Shown here: piece after piece, positions 6,441 to 54,932 of the stretch
Position numbering within the stretch: the stretch's first letter is position 1
How the letters are laid out: every line of letters starts with the position of its first letter
Origin: Candidatus Omnitrophota bacterium
GTDB lineage: Bacteria > Omnitrophota > Gorgyraeia > Zapsychrales > Aceulaceae
Assembly: GCA_029564765.1 (NCBI GenBank)
Contig: JAKQPK010000013.1
Coordinates: forward strand, 125,753-189,752
Direction: 5' to 3'
Length of the DNA stretch: 64,000 nucleotides
Made by a program: the position numbers and the translations under genes
The notes under the pieces: generated by a model
What the model saw: only the letters and a program-made list of their open reading frames with translations
Databases searched by the model: none
Told to the model about the DNA's origin: nothing

Positions 6441-6761
6441 ATGAATAAGCGGGAAAATCCACGCTACGATTGTCGTGTTCCGCTCATGGATGAGCGCAGG
6501 GAAACCCTGAGCAGCAGCTACACTACAGATATTAGCCGCACAGGGGTTGGCTTCGTTTCAACACGATTCATTCCTGTTAATAGCAAGCTTATGGTCGAGA
6601 TCGCTTTAACTCGAGAGGAAAACCCGATGCTGGTTCAGGGACGGGTTCAATGGATCGAAAAGATCCCTCATTCGTCCAATTTCCGGATCGGAATGAATTT
6701 TTCAGATATTTCGTCAAATGCGCAATCGCGCATTGCAGAGCATTTTAGCGTTTCTGCTTAA
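6441..6761 (+). CDS. stand-alone PilZ domain protein (putative c-di-GMP receptor)
   Basis: It carries the 'RxxxR' motif ('RYDCR') and the 'DxSxxG' motif ('DISRTGVGF') that define c-di-GMP-binding PilZ domains. Confidence 0.7.
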   Translation: MNKRENPRYDCRVPLMDERRETLSSSYTTDISRTGVGFVSTRFIPVNSKLMVEIALTREENPMLVQGRVQWIEKIPHSSNFRIGMNFSDISSNAQSRIAEHFSVSA

Positions 6762-6793
6762 TATTTAAAAGCCACGGGGAAAGAGAATGCCCC

Positions 6794-7132
6794 TTGAAAA
6801 ATCGACTCAGTAGCAACCAGCGCCTTTTTGAACGCGTAGAGGTTCGTTTTCCTGCCCGCTTAAAGACTCTCCAAGCCTCTGAAGAGCGTGATATCGTTGT
6901 CAAAGATTTCTCTCCTGAAGGCATCAAGGTTCTTACGCACCAACGCCTTTCATTGTTTGATCGTCTGTCACTTTCATTGACGCCCATTGACGGATCCAAT
7001 CCCGTCCTCATGGATGGTTATGTCGTGTGGACAGGCAAGGATAACTCTGATAATTGGCATGCGGGGATCAAATTTAACCAAGTTGACCTGTTAAAAGCCA
7101 ACCGCATCATTGAATTTTGTCAGCGCTCTTGA
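6794..7132 (+). CDS. stand-alone PilZ domain protein (second copy)
   Basis: It carries 'RLFERVEVRF' (RxxxR) and 'DFSPEGIKV' (DxSxxG). It is a tandem paralogue of the preceding gene. Confidence 0.65.
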   Translation: MKNRLSSNQRLFERVEVRFPARLKTLQASEERDIVVKDFSPEGIKVLTHQRLSLFDRLSLSLTPIDGSNPVLMDGYVVWTGKDNSDNWHAGIKFNQVDLLKANRIIEFCQRS

Positions 7133-9699: not shown

Positions 9700-12600
9700 C
9701 TAGAAGTATTTTGTGTAGAACAAGCGGATAATGTGTTGCGTATCCACTGTTGGCGTTGAACTGCCGATATAGGGAGTGCCAGTAGCGTAGCCCGTGTAGA
9801 TCGATGGCCCGACACCGTAAGAAGCAGTGATCTTGCTTTCGTCCCTTAACAGATATTGTGTTTCAAAGAAAAAATTGTGATGGCTCTGAAAATCAATTTC
9901 CCCTCTGTTGTTGCCTAAAGAATCTAGATCAAGCAATTTAGTTAGACTGTTCCATCGGCTCCACGTGTATTTTGTGTACATTTGAAGATTTGCTGTTGGC
10001 ATGTAGCTAACAGCCAATCCGACATGGTTCATGTTGTCATCAATAGGCCCTGCAAATTCATTGGGATTGCGGGTGTAGTCCAGATAAATATTCCATTTGT
10101 CGTTGGGCCTGAAATCAAGTCCTGTGCGGAAGATATTGTGGTATTCGTACGGTGGTAGCGAGAAAAAACCTTGACTATAAAGGAAATTGTAGTCGCTGCG
10201 GTAGATCCTTCCATAAGAACTATTTGTGATCGTGCTTGTGTCATTTAATATGCCGCGTGGGAAGTTATCTGCAGCGACAGTAAAATCATTTGTACGTTCC
10301 CAGATACCGCTCCATGCAACCCAATCTGTGAGCCAGTATTTTAAGCCTAAAGATGTCGTATACAGATTGGCATCTTCATTGTCAGGGATAGCGGCATTGG
10401 CCATTTGACCACCGTCAAGACGTGTCATGTATGGATCAAACCCTCCCGTCGTGCGCGGAACATGATGGGCTAGCAAAAGCATTTTTGTTTCAAATCGCGA
10501 ATTTGGCTGCCAACCCCATTCTGTGCGAGCAACTGTTTCAACATATTTATTCGTGCTGGCTTGATGAACATTGCGGATATCTGCCAGACCTTTTAATTTT
10601 GCATCCCAGAATGAAAGATCTGTCCGCCAATTTGCGACATAGCGGTCATAGTCGATACCGTTACCGATGCGGAAAGCGTTAATATCATCCGAAGAGATCG
10701 TTTGAAAGCTAACGGGATCCCGGAAGGTCAGATGGCGCCCCCAGAATTCATCATCACGCGTTTCTAGGTATGTTGAGAGGCTGGATTGAAATCCTTTGTC
10801 CATACGTGAAAGACGAAGGCGTGTTTTATAAAAAGTAGATTGACCGTCTTCTGGCTTGATCAGGAAATAATCCTGATCAGCGCCTTCAAGATAAGAGGAC
10901 GTTTTCATTAATTGTAGATCATAGGCAGATCCTCGTTGCTGAGAATCGTAAAAATCATTGGTTAGATCTTGCTGTAGGTAGGAGAAAGCGTATTGAGCGG
11001 AAACTTTTGAGCTAGGGCTTATCATGAGGCCTGAATCAACACTAGTAACGATATTATAAGCATCTAAATCTTGATTGATAAATCCAAGATGGGCGTTATC
11101 TGTGATGCCGACATAGAACTGCTCAGAGAAGCTTTGTTTTGCGCGGACACTGGTCGCTAAAGCATCAAAGACATCATAGTCTTGCCAGAGCGTTTTTGGT
11201 GAAGCGACCGTTGCAAGGATCTCTGTATTTTCTTTGCTAAAATTTGCCGAAAAGCCGCGCAACGCTGTTAAGCGATTTCCTTCACTGTCGCGTGTTGCAA
11301 AAGCTAGGTCGTCATTCCATTCGCCTTTTGTAAAATCAACAGGGATAGCGCCGGCATTGACATGTCCTGGCTTCCAGTTCGCCAGCCAAGGGCTCTCTTC
11401 CCACCAGGTTCTGTTGTTGGAAAGGCGCAAAGGATCGTCTGAGGACAACGCCTTATCTTCAAGACCGAAGGGGAAGACTTGAAGCTTGATTGTATCGTTG
11501 GGCTCATAGTCTACCCACAACTCGCGTACAGGCTGAAACCACATGTTAAGTTTTGTATCAGGTAAGAGAAGCTTGTTCCCGAATTTTGTATTCAAGGATG
11601 TGCTGGCAACATGACCATTGACCACTTTTAGCTCGGGGATGGACATAAGGTCGCCAACGTACAGAGTGTCGGCATTCAGGCCCATGGTGTAGGCACTGTT
11701 GCCTGCGTATAGGATCTGTACGTCCGCATAATCTGTCCATGTTCCCAGTGCGCCACTATCACGCAATGTCATCTTTTTTGATTTTCCAACATAGCTCCAG
11801 GGGTCAAGGGCAATGTTCGTGTGAAACGAAAAAGGATTGCCAATAGGCTCGATATCAACATCAAATTTCATTTGGCTGTAAATGGCAGGGTCGTAGGTGT
11901 TGATGCGCTGGTTCAGCTGATCCCCGGAGAGAAGGCGATAATTCTTTTCATTGAGGTCAAAGTTCGCGCGTTTCCAGATAAACTCGCCACCCCCGGATGT
12001 TTCAAAGCCAAAGCCTGCGCGTACTTTACCGTGGACCATGACCTCTTCAGGCTTGGTTTCCTGATACTCTTTTTGCTTAGAAGAAAACGATCGATCATCA
12101 ACAGATTTCTGAGGAGCGATGTCTTCATCGCCGAAGGCTTCAAGCATTTTTGCTTCAGAGACAGTCTCAGCATTGAGCGCGGAAGCAAGGGTCTGACGAA
12201 CTGTCCGAGCAGGAGGATGGCTAGTGACCGCCTGCTGGCCTTTTGTATGCTGAGCGTATTCTTGCTCCAGCTCTTTGATCGCGTGAAATTTGTTGAGTTC
12301 GTCGTTAATAGCTTTGTCGCGGTTTTCAGCATATGATACTGAGGATCGCGCGTTTTCTATGGATTGTCGGCAGAGAGGAAGGTATTTGAGGGCATCAGGA
12401 TTGCCAGGTTCTCTGTTCAAGGCCGCTTCAAATTTCTTTGCGGCTTCAACATATTGTCCTTGGCCGTATAAAAAAAGACCCATTTCAGCATCGATATTGC
12501 TAGCTGTTGCTATGAAGGGAAACATGGAAAAAAGAACGAAAACAAAAAACCCTAACGAATAAATCGTTACCGACTTTATAGAGCGGTTCTTTTGGCTCAA
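9700..12600 (-). CDS. large outer-membrane protein with an N-terminal TPR-like region and a C-terminal aromatic-rich predicted beta-barrel
   Basis: It has a signal peptide and a TPR-like 'YGQGQYVEAAKKFEAALNREPGNPDALKYL'. About 700 aa follow with alternating aromatic/hydrophilic beta-strand character, ending in 'LFYTKYF', the C-terminal aromatic signature of an OM beta-barrel. It is transcribed divergently from the ABC sugar operon. Confidence 0.55.
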   Translation of the reverse strand: MSQKNRSIKSVTIYSLGFFVFVLFSMFPFIATASNIDAEMGLFLYGQGQYVEAAKKFEAALNREPGNPDALKYLPLCRQSIENARSSVSYAENRDKAINDELNKFHAIKELEQEYAQHTKGQQAVTSHPPARTVRQTLASALNAETVSEAKMLEAFGDEDIAPQKSVDDRSFSSKQKEYQETKPEEVMVHGKVRAGFGFETSGGGEFIWKRANFDLNEKNYRLLSGDQLNQRINTYDPAIYSQMKFDVDIEPIGNPFSFHTNIALDPWSYVGKSKKMTLRDSGALGTWTDYADVQILYAGNSAYTMGLNADTLYVGDLMSIPELKVVNGHVASTSLNTKFGNKLLLPDTKLNMWFQPVRELWVDYEPNDTIKLQVFPFGLEDKALSSDDPLRLSNNRTWWEESPWLANWKPGHVNAGAIPVDFTKGEWNDDLAFATRDSEGNRLTALRGFSANFSKENTEILATVASPKTLWQDYDVFDALATSVRAKQSFSEQFYVGITDNAHLGFINQDLDAYNIVTSVDSGLMISPSSKVSAQYAFSYLQQDLTNDFYDSQQRGSAYDLQLMKTSSYLEGADQDYFLIKPEDGQSTFYKTRLRLSRMDKGFQSSLSTYLETRDDEFWGRHLTFRDPVSFQTISSDDINAFRIGNGIDYDRYVANWRTDLSFWDAKLKGLADIRNVHQASTNKYVETVARTEWGWQPNSRFETKMLLLAHHVPRTTGGFDPYMTRLDGGQMANAAIPDNEDANLYTTSLGLKYWLTDWVAWSGIWERTNDFTVAADNFPRGILNDTSTITNSSYGRIYRSDYNFLYSQGFFSLPPYEYHNIFRTGLDFRPNDKWNIYLDYTRNPNEFAGPIDDNMNHVGLAVSYMPTANLQMYTKYTWSRWNSLTKLLDLDSLGNNRGEIDFQSHHNFFFETQYLLRDESKITASYGVGPSIYTGYATGTPYIGSSTPTVDTQHIIRLFYTKYF

Positions 12601-30478: not shown

Positions 30479-31933
30479 TTAAGCCTTTCCTCTGCGTTGT
30501 TCAAGCTGCTTGCGAATATCATACGCCTTTTCTTCAGAGATTTCAAATCGCATGATAATAAAGATCGCCACGAGCGATGTGACGATCGGAATGCCAACAT
30601 CGCAAACCCTCATCCAGAATAAAGCGTTGACCGACTGCCCAAGCCCTAGAGATTCTTTGAATCCTATAACATTGAACATGACCCCTGCAATCAGCGAGGC
30701 GAGCGCCACGCCCAATTTGACCATCCACCAGTAGACGGCGCTAAACGTCCCTTCACGTCGTTCGCCGGTATTGAGCTCATCCAGATCGCAGACATCGGCG
30801 ACCATGGAATTCATCAAGGTAAAAAGCGAACCTAAGCCGAAGGTGACAAAAGGAGCCGCGATGAATAGTAGATAAGGATTGTTCGGGTTGTATCCGATCC
30901 ATTTTAAGGCATAACCGATGATCGAAAGAGGAATGGTAATAAAGAAAGTATTACGCTTTCCTATGCGAGCAGAGAAACGAGCGGTTAGATAAATAACACC
31001 CATACTGCATAGCGCGCTAAATGACCCATACCACCCCAGCAATGTTCCACCTTTGGAATAGGCTTCGCCAATAGAGGCAGCCCCCTGATAAACATAAAAG
31101 AAAACAATGTACGCGGTAAAAGAGGACGCCAGCATAAAGCCGCCAAAGATCAGCAAAGTCGCTAGGCACAATTTGACGAACGGCCAGCATTGCAAGGCGA
31201 TACCTACGCCCTTGAAAAATTTTTTCATGACATTTAAGGCACCGCCGACATCAGGTTTTGGCAGTTTACCAAAATGTTCTTTGTTAAAAAGAGCTGGGAA
31301 AACACCTCCAAAGATCAAGCAGGCCCCAATAATGATCGCCAGAACGCGCACACCATGCACGCCATCTTTAAACCACGCGGCATTATGCATGATTGGCCAG
31401 CTCCAGGGAGCGATGAACCATGGCAGCTGCCCGACAAAACTGCTGGCCGCCTGCAGACGGGTGCGTTCATGATAATCAGGCGTCATTTCATATCCCAGCG
31501 CGATCCACGGAATAGAGAAGCACGTAAAGCAAATAAAGAATAAAAGCTGGAAGGATAGAAAATAAGTAAAATAGAACATTTCGCTATGCCCTTTGTGAAG
31601 CTGGAACATCAGGGCAAAGAGGATGCCTCCGGTGATCGCGCCAAACAAGATCAAAGGCCTGCGGCGGCCCCAAGGAGTCCTTAGATTATCAGAAAAATAG
31701 CCTGTGACTGGGTCTGATACCGCGTCAAAGATGCGGGGAAGAAATCCGATAAAGCCGACCAGGGCAGGGTTGATCCCAAGCCCAAGGTTCAAGATCATGA
31801 CCATTTGTCCCGCGAATGCGGATTGAGCAGTGTTGGCAAAAGCTCCCATGCTATAGGCGGCTTTCTGGAAGAACGAGATACGGTCTTCCTTCGCGGTGAC
31901 ATGGTGCGCTGCCTGGTGAGCTGCATTTCCCAT
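30479..31933 (-). CDS. MFS transporter of the glycoside-pentoside-hexuronide:cation symporter (GPH/MelB-like) family
   Basis: It carries the GPH signature 'D..SD..G..SD....PWGRRRP' in loop 2-3 and 12 predicted TM helices. Confidence 0.75.
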   Translation of the reverse strand: MGNAAHQAAHHVTAKEDRISFFQKAAYSMGAFANTAQSAFAGQMVMILNLGLGINPALVGFIGFLPRIFDAVSDPVTGYFSDNLRTPWGRRRPLILFGAITGGILFALMFQLHKGHSEMFYFTYFLSFQLLFFICFTCFSIPWIALGYEMTPDYHERTRLQAASSFVGQLPWFIAPWSWPIMHNAAWFKDGVHGVRVLAIIIGACLIFGGVFPALFNKEHFGKLPKPDVGGALNVMKKFFKGVGIALQCWPFVKLCLATLLIFGGFMLASSFTAYIVFFYVYQGAASIGEAYSKGGTLLGWYGSFSALCSMGVIYLTARFSARIGKRNTFFITIPLSIIGYALKWIGYNPNNPYLLFIAAPFVTFGLGSLFTLMNSMVADVCDLDELNTGERREGTFSAVYWWMVKLGVALASLIAGVMFNVIGFKESLGLGQSVNALFWMRVCDVGIPIVTSLVAIFIIMRFEISEEKAYDIRKQLEQRRGKA

Positions 31934-32218
31934 CCATTACCTCTTTTCTGTTTAAGATGAATACGATATTGATCCTGTGCGGCAAATAAGTTTTGATTAT
32001 AACAAACTAATTTCACGCGCACAACCAATTTATCACAAAGCGTGTAAGGCCGTAGGTGATAGGCTCTTACCGTGAAAAAAGACTTCCAATATATATATAT
32101 TGATATAAAATATATAAATATTTTATAAATCGTTCCATGTCTTTAGCCCCTTAGGCTAAGAAGTGGTATTAGCGATAAACAGATCAAAGAAAGCCCTTGA
32201 ACATTTAACGAGAGACCT

Positions 32219-34690
32219 ATGAGCTACGATATCAACGAGATAAAGAAAATTGAATCTAAATGGCAAAAGGCCTGGAAAGACAATAAGACCTTTAGCGCCA
32301 CAAACGACACCTCCAAGCCTAAATATTATTGTTTAGAGATGTTCCCGTATCCATCGGGCAAGATCCATATGGGTCATGTACGCAATTACACGATCGCCGA
32401 TGTCATTGCCCGCATGAAGAAAATGCAAGGCTTTAATGTCTTGCACCCTATTGGCTATGATGCCTTTGGCCAGCCGGCCGAGAATGCCGCCATCAAGCAT
32501 AAGACCGATCCTGCCAAGTGGACCTATCGCTGTATCAGCGAAATGCATGAAGGTTTTGAAAAAATGGGATTTTCCTATGATTGGGATAGAGAGATCGCCA
32601 CTTGCGATAAGGCCTATTACAAATGGAATCAATGGATATTCTTAAAGATGATGGAAAAAGGCCTTGCGTACAAAAAGGCTTCCGCTGTTAACTGGTGTCC
32701 AAGCTGTGAAACAACGCTTGCCAACGAAGAAGTCATTAATGGCGGATGTTGGCGTTGTAAATCAGAAGTTGTGCAAAAAGATCTCGATCAGTGGTACTTG
32801 AAGATCACGCATTACAGCGAAAAACTTTTGGAAGACCTTGATACATTAAAAGAATGGCCTTCACGTGTTGTTGCAATGCAAAAGAATTGGATCGGCAAAA
32901 GTCTGGGCGTAGAGATTTTCTTTAAAGTGGAAAAGACCGGTGAGACTCTGCCGGTTTTCACGACACGCCAGGACACGATCTTCGGGGCGACCTATGTCGT
33001 TTTAGCGCCGGAGCATCCTCTGGTTGCCAAGCTTGTTAAAGGTACTCCTAAAGAAAAAGAAGTTTTTGATTTTATTAAAAAGATCAGTCTTGTCAGTAAA
33101 GCTGACCGTGTGGCCGAAGGCTTGAAAAAAGAAGGGATCTTTACCGGGCTTTACGCGATCAATCCGGTCAATAATGAACACATTCCGATCTGGATCGCGG
33201 ATTATGTTTTGATGGAATATGGCACTGGGGCTATCATGGCTGTCCCGACGCATGACCAGCGTGATTTTCTTTTTGCCAAAGAGCACGGATTGCCGATGCG
33301 TATTGTTATTCAAGACCCTAAGCGGCCTAATATCGCTTCAGAAGGCCTGACAGAAGCCTATACAGCTGAAGGCGCGCTTGTCAATAGCGCGCGATTTAAC
33401 GGCATGAACAATGTCGAGTCGTTGCAAAAAATTGCCGAATGGATGGAGCAAGAAAAAATCGGCAAAGCTGTGACACATTGGCGTTTGCGTGATTGGCTTA
33501 TCTCCCGTCAGCGGTATTGGGGAACGCCGATTCCTGTTGTTTATTGCGATGCCTGCGGTATTGTTCCTGTGCCGGAAAAAGACCTGCCGGTTGTCTTGCC
33601 AGAAGATATCAAGATCACGGGTGAAGGCGGAAGTCCTTTGGCTAAGAGTGAGAAGTTCGTTCATGTTAAGTGTCCTAAGTGCGGTAAGCCAGCCCATCGC
33701 GAGACCGACACCATGGCGACATTCTTTGATTCCTCTTGGTATTTTTTGCGTTATACGGACGCGCACAACGACAAAGAGATATTTAACAAGGCGTTGGCCA
33801 AATATTGGATGCCGGTAGATCAATACATTGGCGGTATTGAGCATGCGATCTTGCATCTTTTGTACTCTCGTTTCTTCACGAAATTCTTTAAAGATCTTGG
33901 TCTTATCAATTTCGATGAGCCTTTTACGCGATTGCTCACTCAAGGCATGGTCTTAAAAGACGGCGAGGTCATGAGCAAGTCCAAGGGCAACACCGTTGAT
34001 CCTGATGCCGTGATCAGCAAATACGGTGCGGATACGCTGCGGCTTTTTATTTTGTTTGCCGCACCTCCTGAAGATCAGCTGGAGTGGAACGACGGCGCGA
34101 TTGATGGTTCATGGAGATTTTTAGCCCGCGTTTGGAGTTTAATTGAAAATGGTTATGTTAAGGGCGCCCTGTCGGGCGCCCCAGATAACAGTTCAAAAGC
34201 CCTTGAACGTGAACGCCACATCGCTATCAAAAAGTTTACCGAAGACATTGAGCGCGGATTTAAATTTAACACCTCTATCAGTAGTCTTATGGTTTTCCTC
34301 AACAAGCTTGAGCAATATGTGAAGGAGAAAAAAGACAACGTTGATCAGCCGACGTTAAACAAAAGCCTTGAGACCCTGGTGCTGCTGTTGTCTGTCATGA
34401 CGCCTTTTATGTGCGAAGAGATGTGGCAGAAGATGGGTCATAAAGATAAGAGTATTAGTGATGTGCCATGGCCTCAAGTAGATGAAAAAGCTCTACAGCT
34501 TGAGAATGCCTCGATCGTTGTCCAGATCAATGGCAAGCTGCGCGGTAAATTCGATGTGCCGCTTGATTGCCCTGAAGATAAGCTTAGAGAAATTATTTTT
34601 GCCGATGAGAAGATCAAAACACACCTTGCCGGCAAGGACATCAAGCGTTTCATCGTTGTTGCGAACAAGATCGTGAATATTGTGGCGTGA
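32219..34690 (+). CDS. leuS: leucyl-tRNA synthetase
   Basis: HIGH motif '[15 protein letters not shown]' and KMSKS motif 'VMSKSKGN'. Length is 823 aa. Confidence 0.95.
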
Positions 34691-34707
34691 TCAAGAAAGC
34701 CCCGCGG
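34644..34707 (+). repeat. direct repeat copy 1 (last 47 nt of leuS plus 17 nt downstream)
   Basis: It matches 61 of 64 nt with the repeat at 35234-35297. Patchy similarity continues for about 60 nt further ('CTGGGGTAAATTC' is shared). Confidence 0.85.
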
Positions 34708-34818
34708 TTATTTGTCTGCCTTTTGGCAGGAAAGTAGTCTGGGGTAAATTCAGCCAGATAGCTTAGGAAGCGCTGGCGCTTCGTAAGCTATGGTTTTTTA
34801 AAAGGATCGAGGAGAAGC

Positions 34819-35235
34819 ATGTCAACATTTCTTTGGGAGCCCAGTTTTGAAGTTAATATTAAGATTATTGATGAGCAACATAAGAAATTAGTGGAAACCG
34901 TTAACATCCTTTATGATTCGATCGTTTCAGGCGAAAGCTCAAAAGTTTTATTTACCATTTTTGAGCGTATGGTGGAATACGTAACGTTTCATTTTGAAAC
35001 TGAAGAAGAGCTAATGGTTAGGCTAAGCTTTCCAGGCTTCCAAGAACACAAGCATGAGCACGAGGAATGCACAAAAAAAGTTCTAGAATTTAAACATAAA
35101 TTCGAGAATGGAGAAAAAACGATCTCCATTGAATTAATTTCTTTTTTAGTTGATTGGATTCACCACCACCTTTTGTGTGTAGATATGAAGTACGCTGCAT
35201 TTTTTAAAGAAAAAGGAATTACTCCAAGAGCGTAG
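34819..35235 (+). CDS. bacteriohemerythrin-like protein
   Basis: 'WEPSFEVNIKIIDEQHKKLVETVN' is present. The His/Glu ligand pattern (H..HF..EE, HEHEEC, H.HL) matches hemerythrin four-helix-bundle iron ligands. An RBS 'GGAGAAG' precedes the ATG. Confidence 0.75.
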   Translation: MSTFLWEPSFEVNIKIIDEQHKKLVETVNILYDSIVSGESSKVLFTIFERMVEYVTFHFETEEELMVRLSFPGFQEHKHEHEECTKKVLEFKHKFENGEKTISIELISFLVDWIHHHLLCVDMKYAAFFKEKGITPRA

Positions 35236-35297
35236 CGTTTCATCGTCGTTGCGAACAAGATCGTGAATATTGTGGCGTGATCAAGGAAGCCCCGTGG
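35234..35297 (+). repeat. direct repeat copy 2 (pseudo-3'-end of leuS immediately after the hemerythrin stop)
   Basis: See copy 1. In frame it would encode '...[14 protein letters not shown]'. Confidence 0.85.
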
Positions 35298-35372
35298 TCG
35301 CTGGCGTTCCCTGGGGTAAATTCGCTCAGCAAACTTATGTTCGCTGACGCTCCATAAGATTGGACCTCATTT

Positions 35373-36659
35373 ATGAAATTTATCGCTGATCTCCACATCC
35401 ACTCTAAATACTCCCGCGCGACGAGCAAAGACCTCACTCCTGAACAACTATATTTCTGGGCGCAACTCAAAGGCATAACCGTCGTTGGCACAGGGGATTT
35501 TTTGCATCCGGGTTGGCTAAAAGAATTAAAGACAAAGCTTGAGCCGGCAGAAGAAGGGCTTTTTCAGCTCAAAAAAGAATACGCAAGCGAGATAGATATG
35601 CAGGTCCCGGCTTCTTGCAAAGCTCCCGTGCGTTTTATTTTAAGCGCAGAAGTCGCCAATATTTATAAACGTTTAGATAAGGTGCGCAAAGTTCATAATG
35701 TTATTTTCGCGCCCAGCTTTGATGTCGCGCAGAATTTACAAAAACGTATTGAAAAGATTGGCAACATCCGCTCTGACGGACGTCCTATTTTAGGATTAGA
35801 TTCGCGAGATCTCTTGGAAATTACCCTCGAATCACATCCGCAATCTTTTTTAGTGCCGGCACACATTTGGACACCGTGGTTTTCCATGCTTGGCTCCAAA
35901 GGGGGTTTTGATAAGATGGAAGATTGCTATGGAGATCTCACGAAATATATTTTCGCGTTGGAAACAGGACTTTCATCAGACCCTCTGATGAATTGGCGCC
36001 TAAGCCAGCTGGACCAATGTGTCTTGATTTCAAATTCTGATGCGCATTCAGCGCCCAAGCTTGGCCGCGAAGCGAATATTTTTGACACAGAACTATCGTA
36101 TGCGGGGATCTTTCTAGGCTTATCCCAAGATAGCAACAAAGGATTCTTAGGCACGATCGAATTTTTTCCTGAGGAAGGGAAGTATCATTACGATGGCCAT
36201 CGGGATTGCGATGTGTGTTTAACTCCCAAAGAAACAATTAAAAATAAAGGGCTGTGCCCTAAATGCGGTAAGCCTGTGACGGTGGGGGTCATGGCGCGGG
36301 TGGAAGAACTGGCGGATCGCCCTGAAGGCCAGAAGGGTGCGCGCTCGCGTCCTTATAAGAGTTTGATCCAGCTTGAAACAATTATTGCCGAAGGCAAGGG
36401 CGTCGGGCCGGCATCCAAGCCTGTTCAGGAACTTTTTTACCGCATGCTGTCAAAGATAGGCAATGAACTCAGTATTTTAAATGAGGTTCCTTTAGAGGCA
36501 ATTAAAAAAACTGGTGGCGCGCTTTTGGCCGAAGGTATTTCTCGCATGCGCCAAGGCAAAGTTTCCATCGCTCCCGGTTATGATGGCGAGTACGGCGTGA
36601 TCAGTTTGTTTTCTGATAAAGAGCGAGCGACAAAAAAAGAACAGCTGACGTTGTTTTAA
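35373..36659 (+). CDS. PHP-domain protein of the endonuclease Q (EndoQ / TIGR00375-like) family
   Basis: The N-terminal 'MKFIADLHIHSKYSRATSKDLTPEQL...KGITVVGTGDFLHP' matches the PHP metal-binding start of EndoQ. The C-terminal 'CPKCGKPVTVG' is the EndoQ zinc-finger. Confidence 0.65.
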   Translation: MKFIADLHIHSKYSRATSKDLTPEQLYFWAQLKGITVVGTGDFLHPGWLKELKTKLEPAEEGLFQLKKEYASEIDMQVPASCKAPVRFILSAEVANIYKRLDKVRKVHNVIFAPSFDVAQNLQKRIEKIGNIRSDGRPILGLDSRDLLEITLESHPQSFLVPAHIWTPWFSMLGSKGGFDKMEDCYGDLTKYIFALETGLSSDPLMNWRLSQLDQCVLISNSDAHSAPKLGREANIFDTELSYAGIFLGLSQDSNKGFLGTIEFFPEEGKYHYDGHRDCDVCLTPKETIKNKGLCPKCGKPVTVGVMARVEELADRPEGQKGARSRPYKSLIQLETIIAEGKGVGPASKPVQELFYRMLSKIGNELSILNEVPLEAIKKTGGALLAEGISRMRQGKVSIAPGYDGEYGVISLFSDKERATKKEQLTLF

Positions 36660-36951
36660 ATGTAGTTGTCTGAGGGCATGTTAGCATTATCCTTCGCTCA
36701 GACAACCTTCGTCGTCATTTTTCTAAGAAATTAAGAAAAGTAGACGACTATGGAAACTCCCGAGAGGACAAAGTTAGTATGCCTTTTAATGCAGACAGCA
36801 ACAAAGAGATTGCGTTGATTCAAGAAGGCAAGTGTTCCAAGAAAAGACTGGGCAAGCTCACAGGCAGTTGCGAAAAGATTTCTATTGTGTTTTTTGCGAT
36901 TCTTGATATTTTTAAGGCGTTCTTTTGAGCCAGAGCAAGCGAGAGTGATAT

Positions 36952-38631
36952 ATGCAGCGACCGATTGATGTTAATGCCACGCAGTGGCAAGCCGTAACCC
37001 ATACGGCGCAAAACCTTCTGATCGTTGCCGGCCCCGGCACAGGAAAAACCCACACCCTTATTTATCGTATTCTTTACGCGTTCGAAAGCCTTTCTGACGA
37101 TAAAAGAATTCTCGCTGTCACTTTCACTAATAAATCCGCGCAAGAAATGCGTACACGCCTTGCTCGCTATTTGCCATCATCCGCCCAACGCGTGGATGTT
37201 GGGACATTCCATAGTTTTTGCCTATCTCTGTTGCGTGAACATACCCGCAAAGCAAAGCTGCCCGAAGGTTTTCGTGTGGCTGGACGAAATGAAACGGTCC
37301 AGATCGCTAAGAAAATATGGCGAGGCAAGAAGGTAAAAGAAATTGAGGAGATCCTTAAAAGTATATCTTGGCAAAAGAATACGCAAGAAGGCGAGATGTC
37401 TTCGCGCGCGGTTACTTTGTGGGAGGCGATGCGGCAAGAAAAGCTTTTGGACTTTGACGATATTCTCTTTGATGCCGTTCAGTTGTTGCGTGATAACGGT
37501 GAGATTCGAGCGCAAATGCAAGCACAATACAGTTGTATTTGTGTTGATGAATATCAAGATATCAATTTTATCCAACATCAATTGCTCAAGTTTTTGAAAG
37601 GGTCTCAATGCGCTTTGACTGCGATCGGGGATCCGCGGCAAGCCATTTATGGATTTCGAGGAAGCGATGTCAAATTTTTTCACTCGTTCACTGAGGATTT
37701 CGCGCCCGCGCGAACCTTATCGCTATCTGATAATTATCGCGCCAGTGAAAACCTGCTGAAAGCCGCTGGCCAGGTCATTGAACGATCGAGTACCGTAAAT
37801 TTTACTCCGCTTGTCGCGCGTATCCATGCCCAGGGGCGTCTGACCGTCTATCAAGCTGCGAGCGAGCGGGCTGAAGCGGAATATATTGTCCACGAGATCG
37901 AAAAATTGATCGGAGGCACGAGCTTTTTTTCGAAAGATTCTAAGCGTGTTGGCGTGTGCGAGGCAGAAGGTTTTACTTTCGCGGATACCGCGATCCTCTG
38001 CCGATTAAAGAGCCAGCAGCGCGTGATCATCGAAGCCTTGGAGCGAAGCGGTATCCCTTATCAGGTTTGCGGCGCGCGGCCTTTATTCGAAGAGCCTGAG
38101 ATCGCGGATATGATCGAAGCTCTTTGCGCGATGTCAGAGCAACCCCTAGAAAAAATTACGCAGTATCTTTCTATCCGCAAGAACGACAGCAAAGCTTACG
38201 CACGCTTGGTCGAGCTTGCGCAAGGCGCGGCCGATACTCCGCAATTCCTTTCCGAGATATTCCTGCAGCGTGAGGATGATAACTATGAGGTGAAAGCCGA
38301 GAAGGTATCTGTTCTGACGATGCACGCGGCCAAGGGGCTGGAGTTTGCCGTCGTGTTTATCGCGGGCTGCGAAGAGAACATTATCCCTTTAAGCCAAGAT
38401 CTTGCTGGCCTTGAAGAGGAGAGGCGCTTATTCTATGTCGCTATGACGCGCGCGAAAACTCTGTTGTATCTGACGCGTACTGCTCAACGACTGCGCCATG
38501 GTAAAATTCGGGCCGCGCAAACCTCGCGTTTCTTGGCGGACATTGAAGACCAGCTAAAAGACCTGCAGCAGAGGCCAGCACGTAAGCCCACAGACAAACA
38601 CAGCCAATTAGACTTTTTTGGGAAGCGATGA
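36952..38631 (+). CDS. short UvrD/Rep-type superfamily 1 DNA helicase (559 aa)
   Basis: Walker A 'AGPGTGKTHTL', motif II 'CVDEYQD', 'GDPRQAIYGFRGS' and 'LTMHAAKGLEF...YVAMTRAK' are all SF1 UvrD-family motifs. It is shorter than canonical UvrD/PcrA. Confidence 0.7.
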   Translation: MQRPIDVNATQWQAVTHTAQNLLIVAGPGTGKTHTLIYRILYAFESLSDDKRILAVTFTNKSAQEMRTRLARYLPSSAQRVDVGTFHSFCLSLLREHTRKAKLPEGFRVAGRNETVQIAKKIWRGKKVKEIEEILKSISWQKNTQEGEMSSRAVTLWEAMRQEKLLDFDDILFDAVQLLRDNGEIRAQMQAQYSCICVDEYQDINFIQHQLLKFLKGSQCALTAIGDPRQAIYGFRGSDVKFFHSFTEDFAPARTLSLSDNYRASENLLKAAGQVIERSSTVNFTPLVARIHAQGRLTVYQAASERAEAEYIVHEIEKLIGGTSFFSKDSKRVGVCEAEGFTFADTAILCRLKSQQRVIIEALERSGIPYQVCGARPLFEEPEIADMIEALCAMSEQPLEKITQYLSIRKNDSKAYARLVELAQGAADTPQFLSEIFLQREDDNYEVKAEKVSVLTMHAAKGLEFAVVFIAGCEENIIPLSQDLAGLEEERRLFYVAMTRAKTLLYLTRTAQRLRHGKIRAAQTSRFLADIEDQLKDLQQRPARKPTDKHSQLDFFGKR

Positions 38632-40537: not shown

Positions 40538-42811
40538 ATGAAGCAAAAATACCTTTATCTGTTGGCTGTGATCATTTTTGTTGTTGCCGCGTCCATTAGC
40601 TATCGCGCAAATGAACGGGCCGCGGGTTTTCACGTATCAGGGTCTTCCTCTCAGGTCTTAAGCCGCGCGCAAGAATTCTTTCCTCAAGCACAGTTCATCA
40701 CGTCCGCGGACAGTCCTGATCAGTGGGTGCTGTGCCTGGACGCGGACAGAAAGCCTGTGGGCAAGATCCTTTTGACCAAACCGTTCGTGAATGAGCAGGG
40801 CTACAGCGGCGCTGTGCATTTGCTGATCGCCGCGGACCTAAAGGAAAAGATCCTCGGCGTTCAATTGATCGAGCACACGGAAACAGAGGATGTGATCCGT
40901 TTTCTAGATGAGAAAGAATTCTTTCGCGCTTGGAATGGTATTTCTGTCCAGGAGGCTTTGCGCAAGGATGTGGACGCCGTATCGGGGGCGACGCTGACGA
41001 CGCAGGCGATCGCGCGCGCGTTTAAGAAACGCTTGGCCCTGCTTACGCCGGCGGCACCGATTGTGTCTGCGCCGCCTATTTCTTTTCGCGTGTTAGGGGC
41101 CAATCTGCTGGCTTTGGCGGCGCTAGCTTTTTCTTTGTTCGTTTTTTTCCGTCGCAGGGAGAGCCGCATGTGGAGAAATCTTTCGCTGGCAGTCAATGTT
41201 GTTATTCTGGGGTTCATCACGGCGAAGATGCTTTCTTTCGCGCTTTTTTATGGATGGATCAGATCAGGCATTAACTTTGCGGACGCGATCTTTGTCATTT
41301 GGGTGGCCGCGATAGCGTCTATTTTTATTTACAACAAAAATATTTACTGCCAATGCCTTTGTCCGTTCGGCGCCGCGCAGCAGCTCCTAGGGCAGCTGAC
41401 GCGCCAAAAGTTTTCTTTACGTTTATTGCCGGTCTTTCAGTGGATAGGGTTTGTTTATTTTTCCATGATCTTAGGTCTTTTGTTGGCGTCCGCTCCTTTG
41501 CGGCTTGAATCAACGGAGCCGTTCGCCGCGTTCTTATGGTACAACTTTTTATCGCCAGCGGGGATCATGTTCGGGTTGTGGCTTTTTGTTTCTATTTTCT
41601 GCGGGCGGTTTTGGTGCAACTTTTTATGTCCCACCGGAAGGGCCTTGAATGGATTTTTGGCAAGGACAGGACAAAATCGTGTGTTGTCCATAATCGTCTT
41701 TGTTGTGTGTGTCGCGTCCGCCGTGACCTTGACCCGTTGGCCGCGCGCGGCTACTGTCGCGCCGCAAGAGGCAGCGGCGCCTACCCAGCAGGCAGAAATA
41801 CCTTTTCATATGGCCGCATTTTTTCGATCTTTAGCGGATAATATTGTGCAATGCACATTATGCCCAAGGCAATGTACGCTGAAACCTAACGAAGCAGGAT
41901 TTTGCCGGGCGCGTAAGAACATCCAGGGCAATCTGTATGCCTTGACCTATGGCCAGCCTGTGGCGGTCCATGTGGATCCGGTCGAGAAAAAACCTTTTTC
42001 CCACGTTTATCCCGGGACAAAGTCTTTTTCGATCGCGACAGCCGGATGTAATCTGCGTTGTAAATTCTGCCAGAATTGGGAGATCTCTCAGCTGGATGCT
42101 GAGAAGGTCAAGGCAGAATTTGTCGCTCCAGAACAGATCGTGGCCAAAGCCAAAGAGACGGGTTCCAAGACCATCGCGTTCACCTATACGGAACCTGTGA
42201 TCTTTTATGAATACATGATGGATATCGCGAAAGCCGCGAAAGAACAAGGAGTCGCCTGCGTGATGCATTCAGCTGGGTTCGTGAACGAAGAACCTTTGCG
42301 CGCGTTGGCCCAATACCTTACAGCCGCCAATATTGACCTTAAAGGATTTGATGAAAAATTTTACACAACGTTCACCAGCGGTGACCTGAACGTTGTATTG
42401 CGCACGCTGAAAGTGCTCAAAGAGGAAGGTGTGTGGGTAGAGATCACGACCTTGCTTATCCCCGGCGCTAACGATAGCGATCAGGAGATCCGTAAGCTTT
42501 GCGCTTGGGTCAGGGATCATCTTGGGCCAGAAACACCGATACATTTCTCTAGGTTCTATCCGATGTATAAACTTACCAACCTATCCCCGACACCGGTAGC
42601 GACGCTTTTGCGGGCGCAGGATATTGCCAAGAGCGAAGGCCTGCAGTTCGTCTATATCGGTAATGTTCCCAGTCAAACAGGAGAGAATACCGTTTGTCCG
42701 CATTGTGGTAAACTGCTGATCAAGCGTAAAGGGTATCATGTCCTTGAGGATCATTTGATCGACGGGAAATGCCCGGGTTGCGGCCATGAGATCCCAGGGG
42801 TCTGGCGCTAA
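40538..42811 (+). CDS. tripartite fusion: FMN-binding domain, NosR/NapH-like CxxxCP polytopic membrane domain, and AmmeMemoRadiSam/PflX-type radical SAM enzyme
   Basis: The start is taken at ATG 40538, with the RBS 'AAGGAGAG' 5 nt upstream. After a signal anchor, 'DAVSGATLTTQAIARA' is the RnfG/NqrC/NosR FMN-attachment motif. About six TM helices carry 'CQCLCPFG' and 'CNFLCPTG' (CX3CP). The C-terminal 330 aa carry 'CTLCPRQC...GFCRAR', the radical SAM 'CNLRCKFC' (CX3CX2C) with 'QNWEIS', and a C-terminal Zn ribbon 'CPHCG...CPGCG'. No stop codon or frameshift interrupts the 757 codons. Confidence 0.65.
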   Translation: MKQKYLYLLAVIIFVVAASISYRANERAAGFHVSGSSSQVLSRAQEFFPQAQFITSADSPDQWVLCLDADRKPVGKILLTKPFVNEQGYSGAVHLLIAADLKEKILGVQLIEHTETEDVIRFLDEKEFFRAWNGISVQEALRKDVDAVSGATLTTQAIARAFKKRLALLTPAAPIVSAPPISFRVLGANLLALAALAFSLFVFFRRRESRMWRNLSLAVNVVILGFITAKMLSFALFYGWIRSGINFADAIFVIWVAAIASIFIYNKNIYCQCLCPFGAAQQLLGQLTRQKFSLRLLPVFQWIGFVYFSMILGLLLASAPLRLESTEPFAAFLWYNFLSPAGIMFGLWLFVSIFCGRFWCNFLCPTGRALNGFLARTGQNRVLSIIVFVVCVASAVTLTRWPRAATVAPQEAAAPTQQAEIPFHMAAFFRSLADNIVQCTLCPRQCTLKPNEAGFCRARKNIQGNLYALTYGQPVAVHVDPVEKKPFSHVYPGTKSFSIATAGCNLRCKFCQNWEISQLDAEKVKAEFVAPEQIVAKAKETGSKTIAFTYTEPVIFYEYMMDIAKAAKEQGVACVMHSAGFVNEEPLRALAQYLTAANIDLKGFDEKFYTTFTSGDLNVVLRTLKVLKEEGVWVEITTLLIPGANDSDQEIRKLCAWVRDHLGPETPIHFSRFYPMYKLTNLSPTPVATLLRAQDIAKSEGLQFVYIGNVPSQTGENTVCPHCGKLLIKRKGYHVLEDHLIDGKCPGCGHEIPGVWR

Positions 42812-44910
42812 AGGATGTCTTTAAGCCCGAGAACGATGATCACAGCGAAGACAATAAGACAGGCCAGGTTGATGCCTAAGAACGGGATTAGGATCATCGA
42901 AGCAAGAAGAGTTGCCGCGCAAGCGCCTAAAAGGTCCGCGGCGTATAAAGTCGGTGCGATCTTTTCAACCGCAACCGTGTTGTCCTGACGCCACAAAGCG
43001 CTTAAGAGAGGGTAGCCGAATCCGGTCAAAAGCCCATTTTCAAAAGCAAGTACCATCCAGGCCACTTGATGCCACGCGTTGTGCCCACGATAGTTAGCCC
43101 AGAAAAATATTTCAAGGAAAAAGATGAACCACACAAGAAAAAGCCCCGCGACATAATGTTTTGTGACCGCGCGCGATGAGATGGCGCGGCTTAAGAAAAA
43201 GCTACCCGCGGCCAATCCTGCCATGAACACTCCTACCAGGATCCCCAGCTTCCAGAAAAGCCCTCCGAAAAGCAGTTGAAAGCAAAAAAAGATGACGGCA
43301 CTGGCGCTCATGGACAAAAACCCCATGACCGCCGCCTGACTTTTCAGCCAGAGCGTTGGACGTCCTAGAAAAACAAAGGCCCCCAACCCGATAAAGGCGA
43401 GGCTCACAAGAAAGATGATTGGTTTTAAGGCTAGAGGATCGATGCGCGCGTGCGCGGTAAACCGTGCCTGGTCCATCAAGGTGTAATAAAGAAAACCATA
43501 AGGCATTAGGTCCGTGTTAATGCCTGATGGGAAAGAGAGCATGCGCTGGATATAAGCCGCGCGCGTTGGATCGAGCATGTCGCGCAGATGAAAGACTGTT
43601 ATAAACTGAGCCGAGATCTGGCCGCGCTCAAAACGATTGAGGATTTCTTGCGCCGTAATCTCTTGCTGGGAAGCAACTACGATCATAGCGTCGCCAGGAA
43701 TAAGGAACACCTGAGGGAAGGCGCGCTGTAGCGATCGAATGATACAGGCATTAAAGTCACGGATCACAGGGCTTAGGATATCCGCTTTGGACGGGATCGT
43801 AAAGATAAGGTTTCCTTGCGGCTTAAGGCGCTTTTTCGCTTCTTGAAAGAATTCAACAGTGTAAAAACGGTTAAAGATAAGTGCTGAAGGCGCGGGGATG
43901 TTGAGCACGATCAGATCGTAGAGCGCTGGATCGTTGTTCAAAAAAGAGCGCGGATCCTGATCTTTAAAAGTGATGTTCTTGCCAGGCGCGTAGAATGAAG
44001 GCAGGTGGCGTGGCCGGGGATTGCTGTCGACCGCTGTCACTGCCAAGAGAGGATATTTTTCAAGTTCTTGCACCTGTGATCTTAAGCATGGCCCAATCCA
44101 GAGCATGTCGCGCGCGCCTGCGTGCGTGGCTAGGGCTGTATGGATAAAGACCTCGTGAGTTTCTTTGTCTTCGCTGGTCGCGATCAAACTCCCGTTGACA
44201 TACAAGGAACGAGCGTGGCCGTCATCTGTCAGGATGATAGGGCCCTGCGCCGAGCCTTGCGTGAAGACGATAGATGAGGCGGCAAATTCTTTTTGTAGGA
44301 TCGCCGGAAAGCTGTTGGTCAAAGAAATGGACAAAAGCATTAATGCCGCGGCTATGACCGCCTTGGGGCGTCGGGATATTTTTAAGGCCGGGACCATCAA
44401 TAAAGGTAAGGCCGTAAAGGATAGTGGATTTTGATAAACGTAAAGCCCTAGCGTAAAAACGATCCCTCCTAAAAAGACCCCCAGCGCTTCGCACGCGAAA
44501 AGATAGCCCAGAGAGTGATCTTTGTCCGCGAGCCGTTGGGCATGATGGGCACTTAGGTGGGAGAACGCGTAACCGCTGACCGCGCCTGTCGGCCCAAGGA
44601 CAACGACCGCGGCAAATAAAGAAAAGACTCCGCCGACACTTTCATAATAGGGAATGCTAAAGAGGATCTTCAAGGTGTGCGCCAGAATAATGCCGATACC
44701 AAAGGATAGAGGAAGGGCGATCATCAGTCCTGTATCAGAAAGTATTTGCCTGCGCTTGCGTGTGAGGGATGCTAGTGCGCAGAACAAAGCCCAGATCCCA
44801 ACGCCGGCGATGAGGGCGAGCTCGTTCTTGGCAATGGAAAATGTGAATTCTCGTACCAAGACGAGTTGAAAAATACAACTGACAAAACCAAGAATGATGA
44901 ATATAATCAT
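42808..44910 (-). CDS. spermidine-synthase-like (aminopropyltransferase fold) protein fused to N- and C-terminal polytopic membrane domains
   Basis: The central 'YDLIVLNIPAPSALIFNRFYTVEFFQEAKKRLKPQGNL' matches the SpeE methyltransferase-fold core (D.I..D...P......L.T.EF.......L...G). It is flanked by about 12 TM helices. Confidence 0.55.
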   Translation of the reverse strand: MIIFIILGFVSCIFQLVLVREFTFSIAKNELALIAGVGIWALFCALASLTRKRRQILSDTGLMIALPLSFGIGIILAHTLKILFSIPYYESVGGVFSLFAAVVVLGPTGAVSGYAFSHLSAHHAQRLADKDHSLGYLFACEALGVFLGGIVFTLGLYVYQNPLSFTALPLLMVPALKISRRPKAVIAAALMLLSISLTNSFPAILQKEFAASSIVFTQGSAQGPIILTDDGHARSLYVNGSLIATSEDKETHEVFIHTALATHAGARDMLWIGPCLRSQVQELEKYPLLAVTAVDSNPRPRHLPSFYAPGKNITFKDQDPRSFLNNDPALYDLIVLNIPAPSALIFNRFYTVEFFQEAKKRLKPQGNLIFTIPSKADILSPVIRDFNACIIRSLQRAFPQVFLIPGDAMIVVASQQEITAQEILNRFERGQISAQFITVFHLRDMLDPTRAAYIQRMLSFPSGINTDLMPYGFLYYTLMDQARFTAHARIDPLALKPIIFLVSLAFIGLGAFVFLGRPTLWLKSQAAVMGFLSMSASAVIFFCFQLLFGGLFWKLGILVGVFMAGLAAGSFFLSRAISSRAVTKHYVAGLFLVWFIFFLEIFFWANYRGHNAWHQVAWMVLAFENGLLTGFGYPLLSALWRQDNTVAVEKIAPTLYAADLLGACAATLLASMILIPFLGINLACLIVFAVIIVLGLKDIL

Positions 44911-53845: not shown

Positions 53846-54932
53846 ATGATAGACGAGATCAATAAGCATATTCAACGTTTGGAAAAGAGATTCCACGAAC
53901 TTCGGGGGTTTCTTTGACCTGTCCACGAAGATCCGATCCATAGAGCAGATCCAAGAGCAGATGGCCTCGCCAAATTTTTGGGACAATACGGCTCATGCGA
54001 ACAAGCTGATGCGTGAACTGAAAGTATTGAAAAATACGGTCGAGCCTTTTGATGTGGGCCTGGCCAAGCTCGATGAGCTTAAAGAGTTCGCGATGATCGC
54101 CGCCGAAGATACGGTTTTGTTGCAGCAGATCCAACAGAGCCTTCAGGCCCTTGAGCAGACAGTTGACCAACTTGAGGTGCAGACACTTTTGAGCGGAGAG
54201 TTCGATCATAATAACGCGCTGCTGAGCATTAACGCGGGTGCTGGCGGGACAGAGTCTTGTGATTGGGCCAGCATGTTGTTGCGGATGTATACGCGCTGGG
54301 CGGACGACAAGCAATTCAAGGTAAATATGATCGATGTTTTACCTGGCGAAGAAGCGGGGATCAAAAACGTAACACTGCGTATTTCCGGTGATATGGCCTA
54401 TGGGCTTTTAAAATCTGAAAAAGGCGTGCATCGTTTGGTGCGTATATCGCCTTTTGACGCGAACAAACGTCGCCACACATCTTTTGCTTCGGTCGATGTG
54501 ATCCCTGAGGTTGAGGATGATATCGATATCCAGATCAATCCTGAGGAATTGCGCATCGATGTTTACCGCGCCTCAGGGCCCGGCGGACAAGGTGTTAACA
54601 CGACGGATTCCGCCGTGCGGATCACGCATATCCCCACAGGGACCGTTGTCCAGTGTCAGAGCGAACGCTCGCAGCTACAGAACAAAGAGACCGCGATGAA
54701 GGTCTTGCGCGCCAAGCTTTATGAGCAAAAGGAAAAAGAACAACAGGACCGTATGGCCAGCGAGTATGGAGAAAAGCAAAAGATCGAATGGGGAAGTCAG
54801 ATCCGTTCCTATGTTTTTCAGCCCTATTGCATGGTCAAAGACCATCGCACGGATGTGGAAGAAGGTAATGTCGCCAAGGTAATGGACGGCCATCTCGATA
54901 CGTTCATTGAGGCTTATTTAAAAAGGAAATAA
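53846..54932 (+). CDS. prfB: peptide chain release factor 2 with a programmed +1 ribosomal frameshift (join 53846..53914, 53916..54932)
   Basis: Frame 0 encodes '[23 protein letters not shown]' then an in-frame TGA at 53915-53917, inside the classical 'AGG GGG xxT CTT TGA C' shift site (here CGG GGG TTT CTT TGA CCT). The +1 frame continues '[11 protein letters not shown]...' into the 323-aa RF2 body, which has the SPF and GGQ motifs. Confidence 0.85.

Follow-up and report, generated by a model that had tools for sequence, protein, structure and literature searches.

Genomic islands at the 3' ends of tRNA, tmRNA or protein genes are bounded by attL and attR sequences that reconstitute the gene they target. 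Duplicated sequences can evolve in concert by gene conversion, as duplicated tuf genes and rRNA operons do, and conserved core genes can enclose integration hotspots or variable regions, such as those that hold defence islands. Single crossovers with a circularised molecule leave duplications of 109–950 bp of the homologous locus on either side of the insert (PMC3240628), and transformation can generate duplications (PMC3784515). Here we analysed a locus in a 64-kb stretch of DNA from Candidatus Omnitrophota (contig JAKQPK010000013.1; this whole stretch is referred to as the window), where a small bacteriohemerythrin gene (Hr) lies between leuS, which encodes leucyl-tRNA synthetase, and endoQ, which encodes an endonuclease Q homologue, and is bracketed by a near-perfect direct duplication of the leuS 3' end. 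A preliminary description of the locus had taken Hr for a minimal mobile cassette targeted to the leuS terminus. Our comparisons favour another history, which we consider probable: the second copy is an ancient relic of the leuS tail, Hr came later as cargo, and the relic has recently been homogenised with the functional tail.

The two repeat copies are 65 nt long (34644–34708 and 35234–35298, 590 nt from start to start) and differ by 3 mismatches (95% identity), one nucleotide longer than the 64-bp repeat with 3 mismatches first reported. The degenerate similarity said to extend beyond it is also real: 34739–34793 and 35311–35363 match over 55 nt at about 71% identity (z = 11.3; z scores for spacer and relic similarities are relative to shuffled sequence), separated from the 65-nt repeat by an 18-nt indel. 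Copy 1 comprises the last 2 nt of leuS codon K809, codons 810–823, the stop codon and 18 nt, so that its coding part, 14 codons plus 2 nt, is slightly under 15 codons. The window holds exactly two copies at up to 3 mismatches, and none of 100 dinucleotide shuffles gave a match. The 525 nt between the copies contain, as had been described, only a short leader (110 nt, 34709–34818) and a complete gene, the 138-aa open reading frame (ORF) of Hr (34819–35235, PF01814). It had been missed, however, that the TAG stop codon of Hr overlaps the first two bases of copy 2, which is in frame with Hr. The features of the locus are as follows.

32219–34690, + strand: leuS, leucyl-tRNA synthetase, 823 aa (Pfam tRNA-synt_1, tRNA-synt_1_2 and Anticodon_1; protein 100% identical on 13 contigs).
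34644–34708, + strand: repeat copy 1, the functional leuS tail plus 18 nt (repeat search).
34695–34751, + strand: hairpin A, after the leuS stop, carrying 18 inserted nt that the matching sequence after copy 2 lacks (RNA fold, alignment).
34752–34799, + strand: hairpin B with a T6 run (34794–34799), resembling a terminator or a stem of a 5' untranslated region; a diverged duplicate of the endoQ leader (fold; 55 nt at 71% between the two intergenic regions, IGR1 and IGR2).
34810–34817, + strand: Shine-Dalgarno-like AGGAGAAG upstream of Hr (read in the sequence; kept in L091, L187 and L181).
34819–35235, + strand: bacteriohemerythrin gene (Hr), 138 aa (PF01814, E = 2e-14).
35234–35298, + strand: repeat copy 2, putative non-coding relic of the leuS 3' end (repeat search, comparison with relatives).
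35299–35372, + strand: IGR2, the conserved endoQ leader, taken as the ancestral leuS–endoQ spacer (homology to the spacers upstream of endoQ in L094, L004 and L188).
35373–36659, + strand: endoQ, endonuclease Q homologue, anchor of the conserved block endoQ–uvrD–comEA–comEC (phmmer match to PDB 5ZB8).
36952–38631, + strand: UvrD-family helicase gene (Pfam UvrD-helicase, UvrD_C).

We followed the duplication into relatives of the window's species. In what follows WIN denotes that species and L-numbers the contigs or lineages compared, among them the sister species L091/L092 and the outgroup Candidatus Aceula (L004–L006), whose LeuS is 76–77% identical. A leuS-tail relic is present in at least six lineages, two of them (L188/L190 and L191) without Hr. 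The sister species has the same junction between Hr and relic, and 20 of 65 positions separate its own tail from its relic; the junction, ACTCCAAGAG[C/T]GTAG, is identical in WIN, L091 and L093, the last of which belongs to the same lineage as L091 or a closely related one (identical Hr protein) and carries a differently diverged relic. A 69-nt relic follows Hr in L181/L182, about 75% identical to window leuS 34624–34693 (z = 13.5) and starting 20 nt further 5' than the window repeat. The Hr-less relic of L188/L190 spans ~50 leuS codons (tblastn to LeuS 773–822, E = 2.7e-5; nucleotide z = 11–15), that of L191 (z = 6.3) lies between unknown ORFs, and in L094 the relic is recognisable only as the last ~12 nt of the tail and the post-stop part, the tail-coding part alone giving a p of about 0.1. 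No relic was found in L100, which keeps Hr–endoQ, and the sequence downstream of Hr in L187 shows no significant relic match. The relic is not translated, because it has a 1-nt deletion in strain L002/L085. When 80 related genomes were compared downstream of leuS, a tail duplication was detected only in WIN and its sister species (z > 14), with L074 and L008 borderline (z about 5.6); in L028 and L034 the small genes that part leuS from endoQ are of other kinds, and no tail duplication accompanies them.

These comparisons argue that copy 2 is an old, decaying relic of the leuS 3' end that is independent of Hr. Since the Hr-less L188/L190 and L191 carry it, the relic would not be the footprint of Hr integration that the preliminary description saw in it, and the shared junction followed by a decayed relic in the sister species speaks for the ancient duplication which that description had named as the contrary case. 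A neighbour-joining tree of EndoQ proteins places every relic-bearing lineage in one clade (bootstrap 100%), with Candidatus Aceula as its sister. All Hr-positive lineages (WIN, L091, L181, L094 and L100) fall in subclade II (90%), within which the Hr-less L188 and L101 are nested (98% and 84% for the two nestings); L191, also without Hr, belongs to the sister subclade. Because relics occur across both subclades, with or without Hr, the duplication of the leuS end would lie at the base of the whole clade. Secondary loss would most simply account for the lack of Hr in L101 and L188, since both are nested among Hr-positive lineages.

Hr itself we read as an insertion relative to the outgroup, because in Candidatus Aceula leuS stands directly before endoQ; the same unoccupied arrangement, with spacers of 6–78 nt and no Hr, is seen in several other Omnitrophota. 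On this point the preliminary description holds, and the comparison of base composition that it proposed agrees with it: Hr has the lowest GC (0.348) and GC3 (0.345) of the 55 ORFs in the window (ORF mean GC 0.471, standard deviation 0.034), and its GC is also low in L091, L094 and L100, though not in the GC3-rich L181. The leuS–endoQ spacer of L004 shares homology with the spacer that follows copy 2 (z = 9.9) and none with the one that follows copy 1, so copy 2 and its spacer would mark the ancestral position beside endoQ. The insertion nevertheless appears to be old, neither recent nor cassette-like, for two reasons. At least five species-level lineages (WIN, L091, L094, L100 and L181) have Hr directly before the orthologous endoQ, and the identities of Hr to that of the window in the last four (95, 79, 77 and 73% for L091, L094, L100 and L181) run parallel to those of EndoQ (89, 80, 78 and 78%); in L187, whose Hr is 74% identical, the contig stops before the next gene. 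Among contigs of the window species, recognised by an identical LeuS, Hr or EndoQ, every one that extends to the site contains Hr. Empty sites with a single repeat copy in close relatives, for which the preliminary description had proposed to look, were not seen: unoccupied sites occur only in another genus (L004–L006) and in the nested L101.

If the duplication is this old, the 95% identity of the window copies needs a later event. The duplication predates the split of WIN and L091, because both share the Hr–relic junction. We compared the tail and relic of the window (W1 and W2) with those of L091 (S1 and S2). W1 and W2 differ at only 3 of 65 positions, against 20 of 65 for S1–S2, 20 of 65 for W2–S2 and 10 of 65 for W1–S1. 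Derived states common to both window copies (final codon GCG, TGATC) occur in no copy from L091 or L093, and where the remaining relics have CGC/TGC-TTC in common, that of the window reads CGT-TTC, like the tail. Fourfold-degenerate sites are near saturation between WIN and L091 (identity 0.46 in leuS and 0.50 in endoQ), so a relic left to itself could not have stayed 95–98% identical to the tail; without homogenisation, W1 and W2 should differ at around 15 positions or more. The tract of high identity reaches exactly as far as the collinear homology, from the Hr junction on its left to the 18-nt indel on its right. With within-genome copies closer than orthologues, shared derived states, saturated neutral sites and these tract bounds, and with a duplication older than the split, recent gene conversion or an equivalent recombination between the repeats would be the best explanation of the 95% identity. 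Like other dispersed repeats evolving in concert, the copies are closer within the genome (3/65) than between sister species (10–20/65) and share derived states. This case stands apart in its partners, since a non-coding relic of 65 nt is paired with the terminus of an essential gene present in single copy, and in a very short tract that goes no further than the homology does.

We therefore picture the history of the locus in several steps, each of them a proposal. An ancient rearrangement, in the ancestor of a genus- or family-level clade of Omnitrophota, would have duplicated at least about 150 nt of the leuS end together with the leuS–endoQ spacer, and in doing so parted leuS from endoQ. 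The space on both sides of the relic may then have gained and lost small genes. Hr would be one such cargo. It would have entered at the root of a single subclade and been passed down since, with some recombination among the lineages, and at least one branch would have lost it. In the window species the relic would then have been made nearly identical to the functional tail by recent gene conversion or equivalent recombination between the repeats. The spacer after copy 1, with its two hairpins and -10-like TAAATT, would be an older, diverged duplicate of the endoQ leader that probably supplies the expression signals of Hr.

This last step draws on the leaders themselves. The RNA fold of 34691–34821 (−49.2 kcal/mol, z = −3.6) has two strong hairpins and recurs in L091, where hairpin B carries a compensatory G-C to A-T change. 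The weaker 55-nt similarity described above lies between the leuS–Hr spacer (IGR1) and the spacer before endoQ (IGR2), and the spacers before endoQ in L094 (z = 17.8), L004 (z = 9.9) and L188 (z = 19.2) are in turn homologues of IGR2; hairpin B, the preceding TAAATT and parts of hairpin A are thus a diverged duplicate of the endoQ leader. A promoter-like TTGGCA-16-TAAATT at 34723–34750 overlaps hairpin A. It was the one promoter-like site in a scan for sigma-70 promoters and terminators, which found none in the relic and no more in all than shuffled sequences give. Judged by these resemblances, Hr appears to use a copy of the endoQ expression signals together with its own ribosome-binding site, AGGAGAAG.

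The interval between leuS and endoQ holds different genes in different relatives. The cargo includes Hr alone, TMEM175 and Hr (L094), a response regulator and Hr (L181), ORF112 and Hr (L187), and, in L188, ORF112 (a small secreted-protein ORF) and a restriction-modification system but no Hr. In the latter lineage (L188:1842-4390 and L190; JGI 3300013136, Logan SRR11049250), whose EndoQ is 81% identical, ORF112, the relic, an N6/N4 methyltransferase and a HinfI-like nuclease lie between leuS and endoQ. In L093:854-1093 (ERZ724100 NODE_65871) endoQ does not follow the relic; its place is taken by a gene whose product has a GmrSD_N (DUF262) restriction-endonuclease domain (Pfam E = 3.6e-18). From these arrangements the leuS–endoQ spacer looks like a small gene-flux hotspot in which cargo is swapped on both sides of the relic. 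As at integration hotspots between core genes, including defence islands, the same interval holds differing cargo in relatives; unlike them, the region is only 0.1–2.7 kb long, has no mobile-element genes and contains a relic of the upstream core gene. One relative without a relic, L101, has a 146-nt AT-rich leuS–endoQ spacer (L101:1131-1277) with short repeats of the GAAAT/TTTGA type, which is unlike the window spacers and weakly like the AT-rich spacer of L181 (z = 2.3).

Several observations weigh against this history, or at least against parts of it. The relics are better kept than neutral decay predicts, and selection on the relic could contribute to this. The divergence of WIN and L091 is mosaic along the locus, so that the EndoQ gene tree may differ from the species tree: between window 30479–38631 and L091:648-9145, identity at fourfold sites is 0.46 for leuS, 0.50 for endoQ, 0.67 for a major facilitator superfamily (MFS) transporter gene, 0.815 for uvrD and 0.895 for Hr, and LeuS codons 601–800 are just 58–63% identical in protein. 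Such a mosaic suggests frequent recombination between diverged lineages. Because the fourfold-site identity of Hr is so far above that of its flanks (0.46–0.50), we take as real a recent sharing of the Hr segment between the WIN and L091 lineages by horizontal exchange; it fits cassette-like behaviour and is the strongest argument left for it. At the left Hr junction, the 20–40 nt upstream of Hr resemble tail-derived DNA only weakly (p about 0.01–0.05). Finally, the case for conversion draws on distances within and between genomes, and conversion may have run from tail to relic or from relic to tail.

A possible trace of that direction is LeuS residue 815, which is Pro in 81 of the 105 leuS loci examined and Ala (GCG) in WIN. 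Ala815, with the relic-type GCG AAC AAG, is found in WIN, L181 and L101, and its presence in three lineages of the relic clade suggests either transfer from relic to gene or deletion hybrids between tail and relic. As proof of relic-to-gene conversion in the window lineage alone Ala815 is weakened, since the tails of L101 and L181 are also of the Ala type.

The good preservation of the relics brings in the first of the alternatives, that the relic has been retained by selection as a promoter or regulatory element upstream of endoQ or whichever gene follows. We consider this unlikely, even though it is compatible with an ancient relic refreshed by conversion. The endoQ promoter would once have been part of the leuS 3' end, at a time when 6–25 nt separated the two genes, and very short leuS–endoQ spacers do occur in L005, L006, L029 and L071. 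The relic always lies 20–150 nt upstream of a gene start and is still recognisable despite saturated fourfold sites, and its core, CGTGAATATTG, is invariant in six relic lineages, more conserved than in some functional tails. Against this, the promoter scan picked up nothing like a sigma-70 site in the relic, the RNA structure of the 65-nt segment is unremarkable (z = +1.1), one strain has the 1-nt deletion, and L100 has kept Hr–endoQ without a relic. The over-preservation could reflect either repeated conversion or selection as an endoQ promoter dating from the era when leuS abutted endoQ.

A second alternative dispenses with gene conversion: Hr could recently have been deleted by RecA-type recombination between tail and relic and then reacquired from a close relative, either through a circle inserted in the Campbell manner or through homology-facilitated illegitimate recombination following natural transformation, leaving a fresh, near-identical duplication of the tail. 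The much higher fourfold-site identity of Hr (0.895) than of leuS and endoQ (0.46–0.50) between WIN and L091 fits such an exchange, as do the competence genes comEA and comEC 3 kb downstream, the duplications of 109–950 bp that single crossovers yield (PMC3240628), and L101, which with its Ala815-type tail and no relic resembles the product of a tail–relic deletion. A single recent duplication predicts equal identity throughout, however, and the spacers are ~71% identical with an 18-nt indel while the tails are 95–98% identical; furthermore, L091 has the same architecture and an 86% identical IGR1, placing the architecture before the split, and no empty site was seen in contigs of the species. 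Loss and regain is thus a doubtful account and ranks as a weaker alternative to gene conversion. The original duplication, for its part, resembles Campbell-type insertion and homology-facilitated illegitimate recombination (PMC3240628) in its target duplication of 100–200 nt, in having no dedicated recombinase and in having competence genes nearby; unlike those cases, the event is ancient and its junctions are eroded.

A further reading seems to us rather improbable. The leuS tail, relic and endoQ leader might together form an integrase-free exchange site at which small cargo is inserted, swapped among Omnitrophota and excised near the boundary between codons K809 and R810, the relic being kept by conversion or selection as an internal homology arm, as an endoQ promoter or as both. 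It is suggested by the different cargo that abuts the relic in each lineage, by an Hr far younger than its flanks between WIN and L091, and by the weak tail-like sequence upstream of Hr.

Very little speaks any longer for the cassette as first proposed, in which Hr would be a minimal mobile unit inserted site-specifically at the leuS terminus, bringing with it a replacement leuS 3' end, the two copies being attL and attR. The direct repeats of a gene 3' end on both sides of the insert, the unoccupied arrangement in the outgroup, the anomalously low GC of Hr and the other cargo that adjoins the relic in relatives (GmrSD in L093, restriction-modification in L188) are all consistent with it. The relics without Hr in L188 and L191 largely refute it. 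In the sister species an identical junction is followed by a relic that has decayed. Hr, fixed in every contig of the window species that covers the site, diverges in step with EndoQ across five lineages, and the similarity runs past 65 nt into the spacer, unlike an att core. As the preliminary description had stated, no integrase is retained nearby: we found no integrase, transposase or resolvase Pfam domain in the 40 of 55 window ORFs that were scanned or in the annotated genes within about 6 kb. A site-specific element would have a recombinase gene, which we did not find in the window ORFs examined, in addition to direct repeats at both ends, which are present; it would show presence and absence with empty sites among close relatives, which we did not see; and the second copy would be exclusive to genomes that bear the element, which L188/L190 and L191 contradict. 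The locus is like 3'-end genomic islands in that a direct repeat of a gene 3' end brackets the insert and the functional end is preserved. It differs in that no integrase or excisionase was found, the repeat extends beyond a short core, copy 2 occurs without Hr in relatives, the insertion is old and fixed, and the identity of the copies is secondary. Of the earlier interpretation, then, an Hr inserted in a variable spot with no integrase found stands, and the repeat as footprint of a recently integrated minimal cassette does not.

Two other kinds of element were rejected. An integron gene cassette does not fit repeats that directly copy leuS sequence, a 65-nt segment without a significant fold that could serve as attC (z = +1.1), and the lack of any integrase domain in the ORFs scanned. 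A dispersed terminator or repetitive extragenic palindromic (REP)-like repeat, which the preliminary description had raised as grounds for abandoning an insertion, is rejected within the window, where there are 2 copies in 64 kb at 3 mismatches and no Rfam match; this objection to an insertion therefore does not apply. An Rfam search of 34300–35600 at E ≤ 1 gave nothing beyond one sub-threshold chance hit, and the motif CTGGGGTAAATTC has no further copies in the window beyond its two. Viral collections and contigs contained no copy of the repeat and no relative of Hr, and we found nothing in the literature on an Omnitrophota hemerythrin or on leuS as an integration site. That the structure is an assembly artefact or chimeric contig we discount almost entirely: one Logan assembly does break exactly at the repeat (L087, L090), but the same layout occurs in independent NCBI (GCA_035358335.1), JGI (3300009669) and ENA (ERZ773360) assemblies and, diverged, in the sister species.

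The 138-aa ORF matches Pfam Hemerythrin above the curated cut-off, and its di-iron ligands (H21, H58, E62, H77, H81, H117 and D122) are invariant across 11 homologues, which identifies the predicted product as a bacteriohemerythrin with an HHE cation-binding domain. Homologues are 135 aa long and end in KG[VIL][AVS]; the extra last 3–4 codons (TPRA) occur only in WIN and L091 and would be a lineage-specific extension that runs into the relic. Read-through of the TAG, appending the leuS tail to Hr, was considered and rejected, the relic substitutions in L091 and L093 being mostly non-synonymous and one strain having a frameshift. More distant homologues (59% and 43% identical; L183:443-2521 and L184:4001-5829) lie directly upstream of genes for calcineurin-like metallophosphoesterases, one of them beside rubrerythrin. 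Hemerythrin may be paired recurrently with metallo-phosphoesterases; in the window clade it stands upstream of EndoQ, a metal-dependent nuclease. The endoQ product, called an endonuclease Q family protein in the source annotations, matches PDB 5ZB8 (PfuEndoQ) by phmmer with E = 4.8e-51, and 7K30 with about 5e-51, over residues 5–413, its full length. It is followed in order by the UvrD-family helicase gene, comEA and comEC. A 21-nt direct repeat at 90% identity (GTGYCCTAARTGCGGTAAGCC) links leuS (33670–33690) and endoQ (36254–36274); both copies encode a CPKCGKP zinc-ribbon motif, and the repeat is probably a coincidence of this shared motif.

Elsewhere in the window, a release factor 2 gene (53846–54932; PCRF and RF-1 domains) is preceded by GGGGGTTTCTTTGACC, the classical programmed +1 frameshift site of prfB (CTT TGA C) with a Shine-Dalgarno-like element upstream. 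Two neighbouring small genes at 6441–7132 each encode a stand-alone PilZ domain, and two large ORFs on the − strand, 9703–12600 (966 aa) and 42811–44910 (700 aa), have no Pfam match at E ≤ 1e-5.

These findings open no long-standing question; they add one more case of processes already known (a scar left by target duplication, concerted evolution, and a hotspot of gene flux on a small scale), and thus of ordinary genome evolution. They carry a caution, in that a near-perfect duplication of a gene 3' end around a small gene can mimic fresh site-specific integration, where here it would be an old scar refreshed by gene conversion. For the uncultivated Omnitrophota they document a small hotspot between the core genes leuS and endoQ, which carries genes for defence in certain lineages and, in others, a predicted O2/NO-binding hemerythrin, and residue 815 of LeuS gives a hint that sequence can pass back from a non-coding relic to an essential gene.

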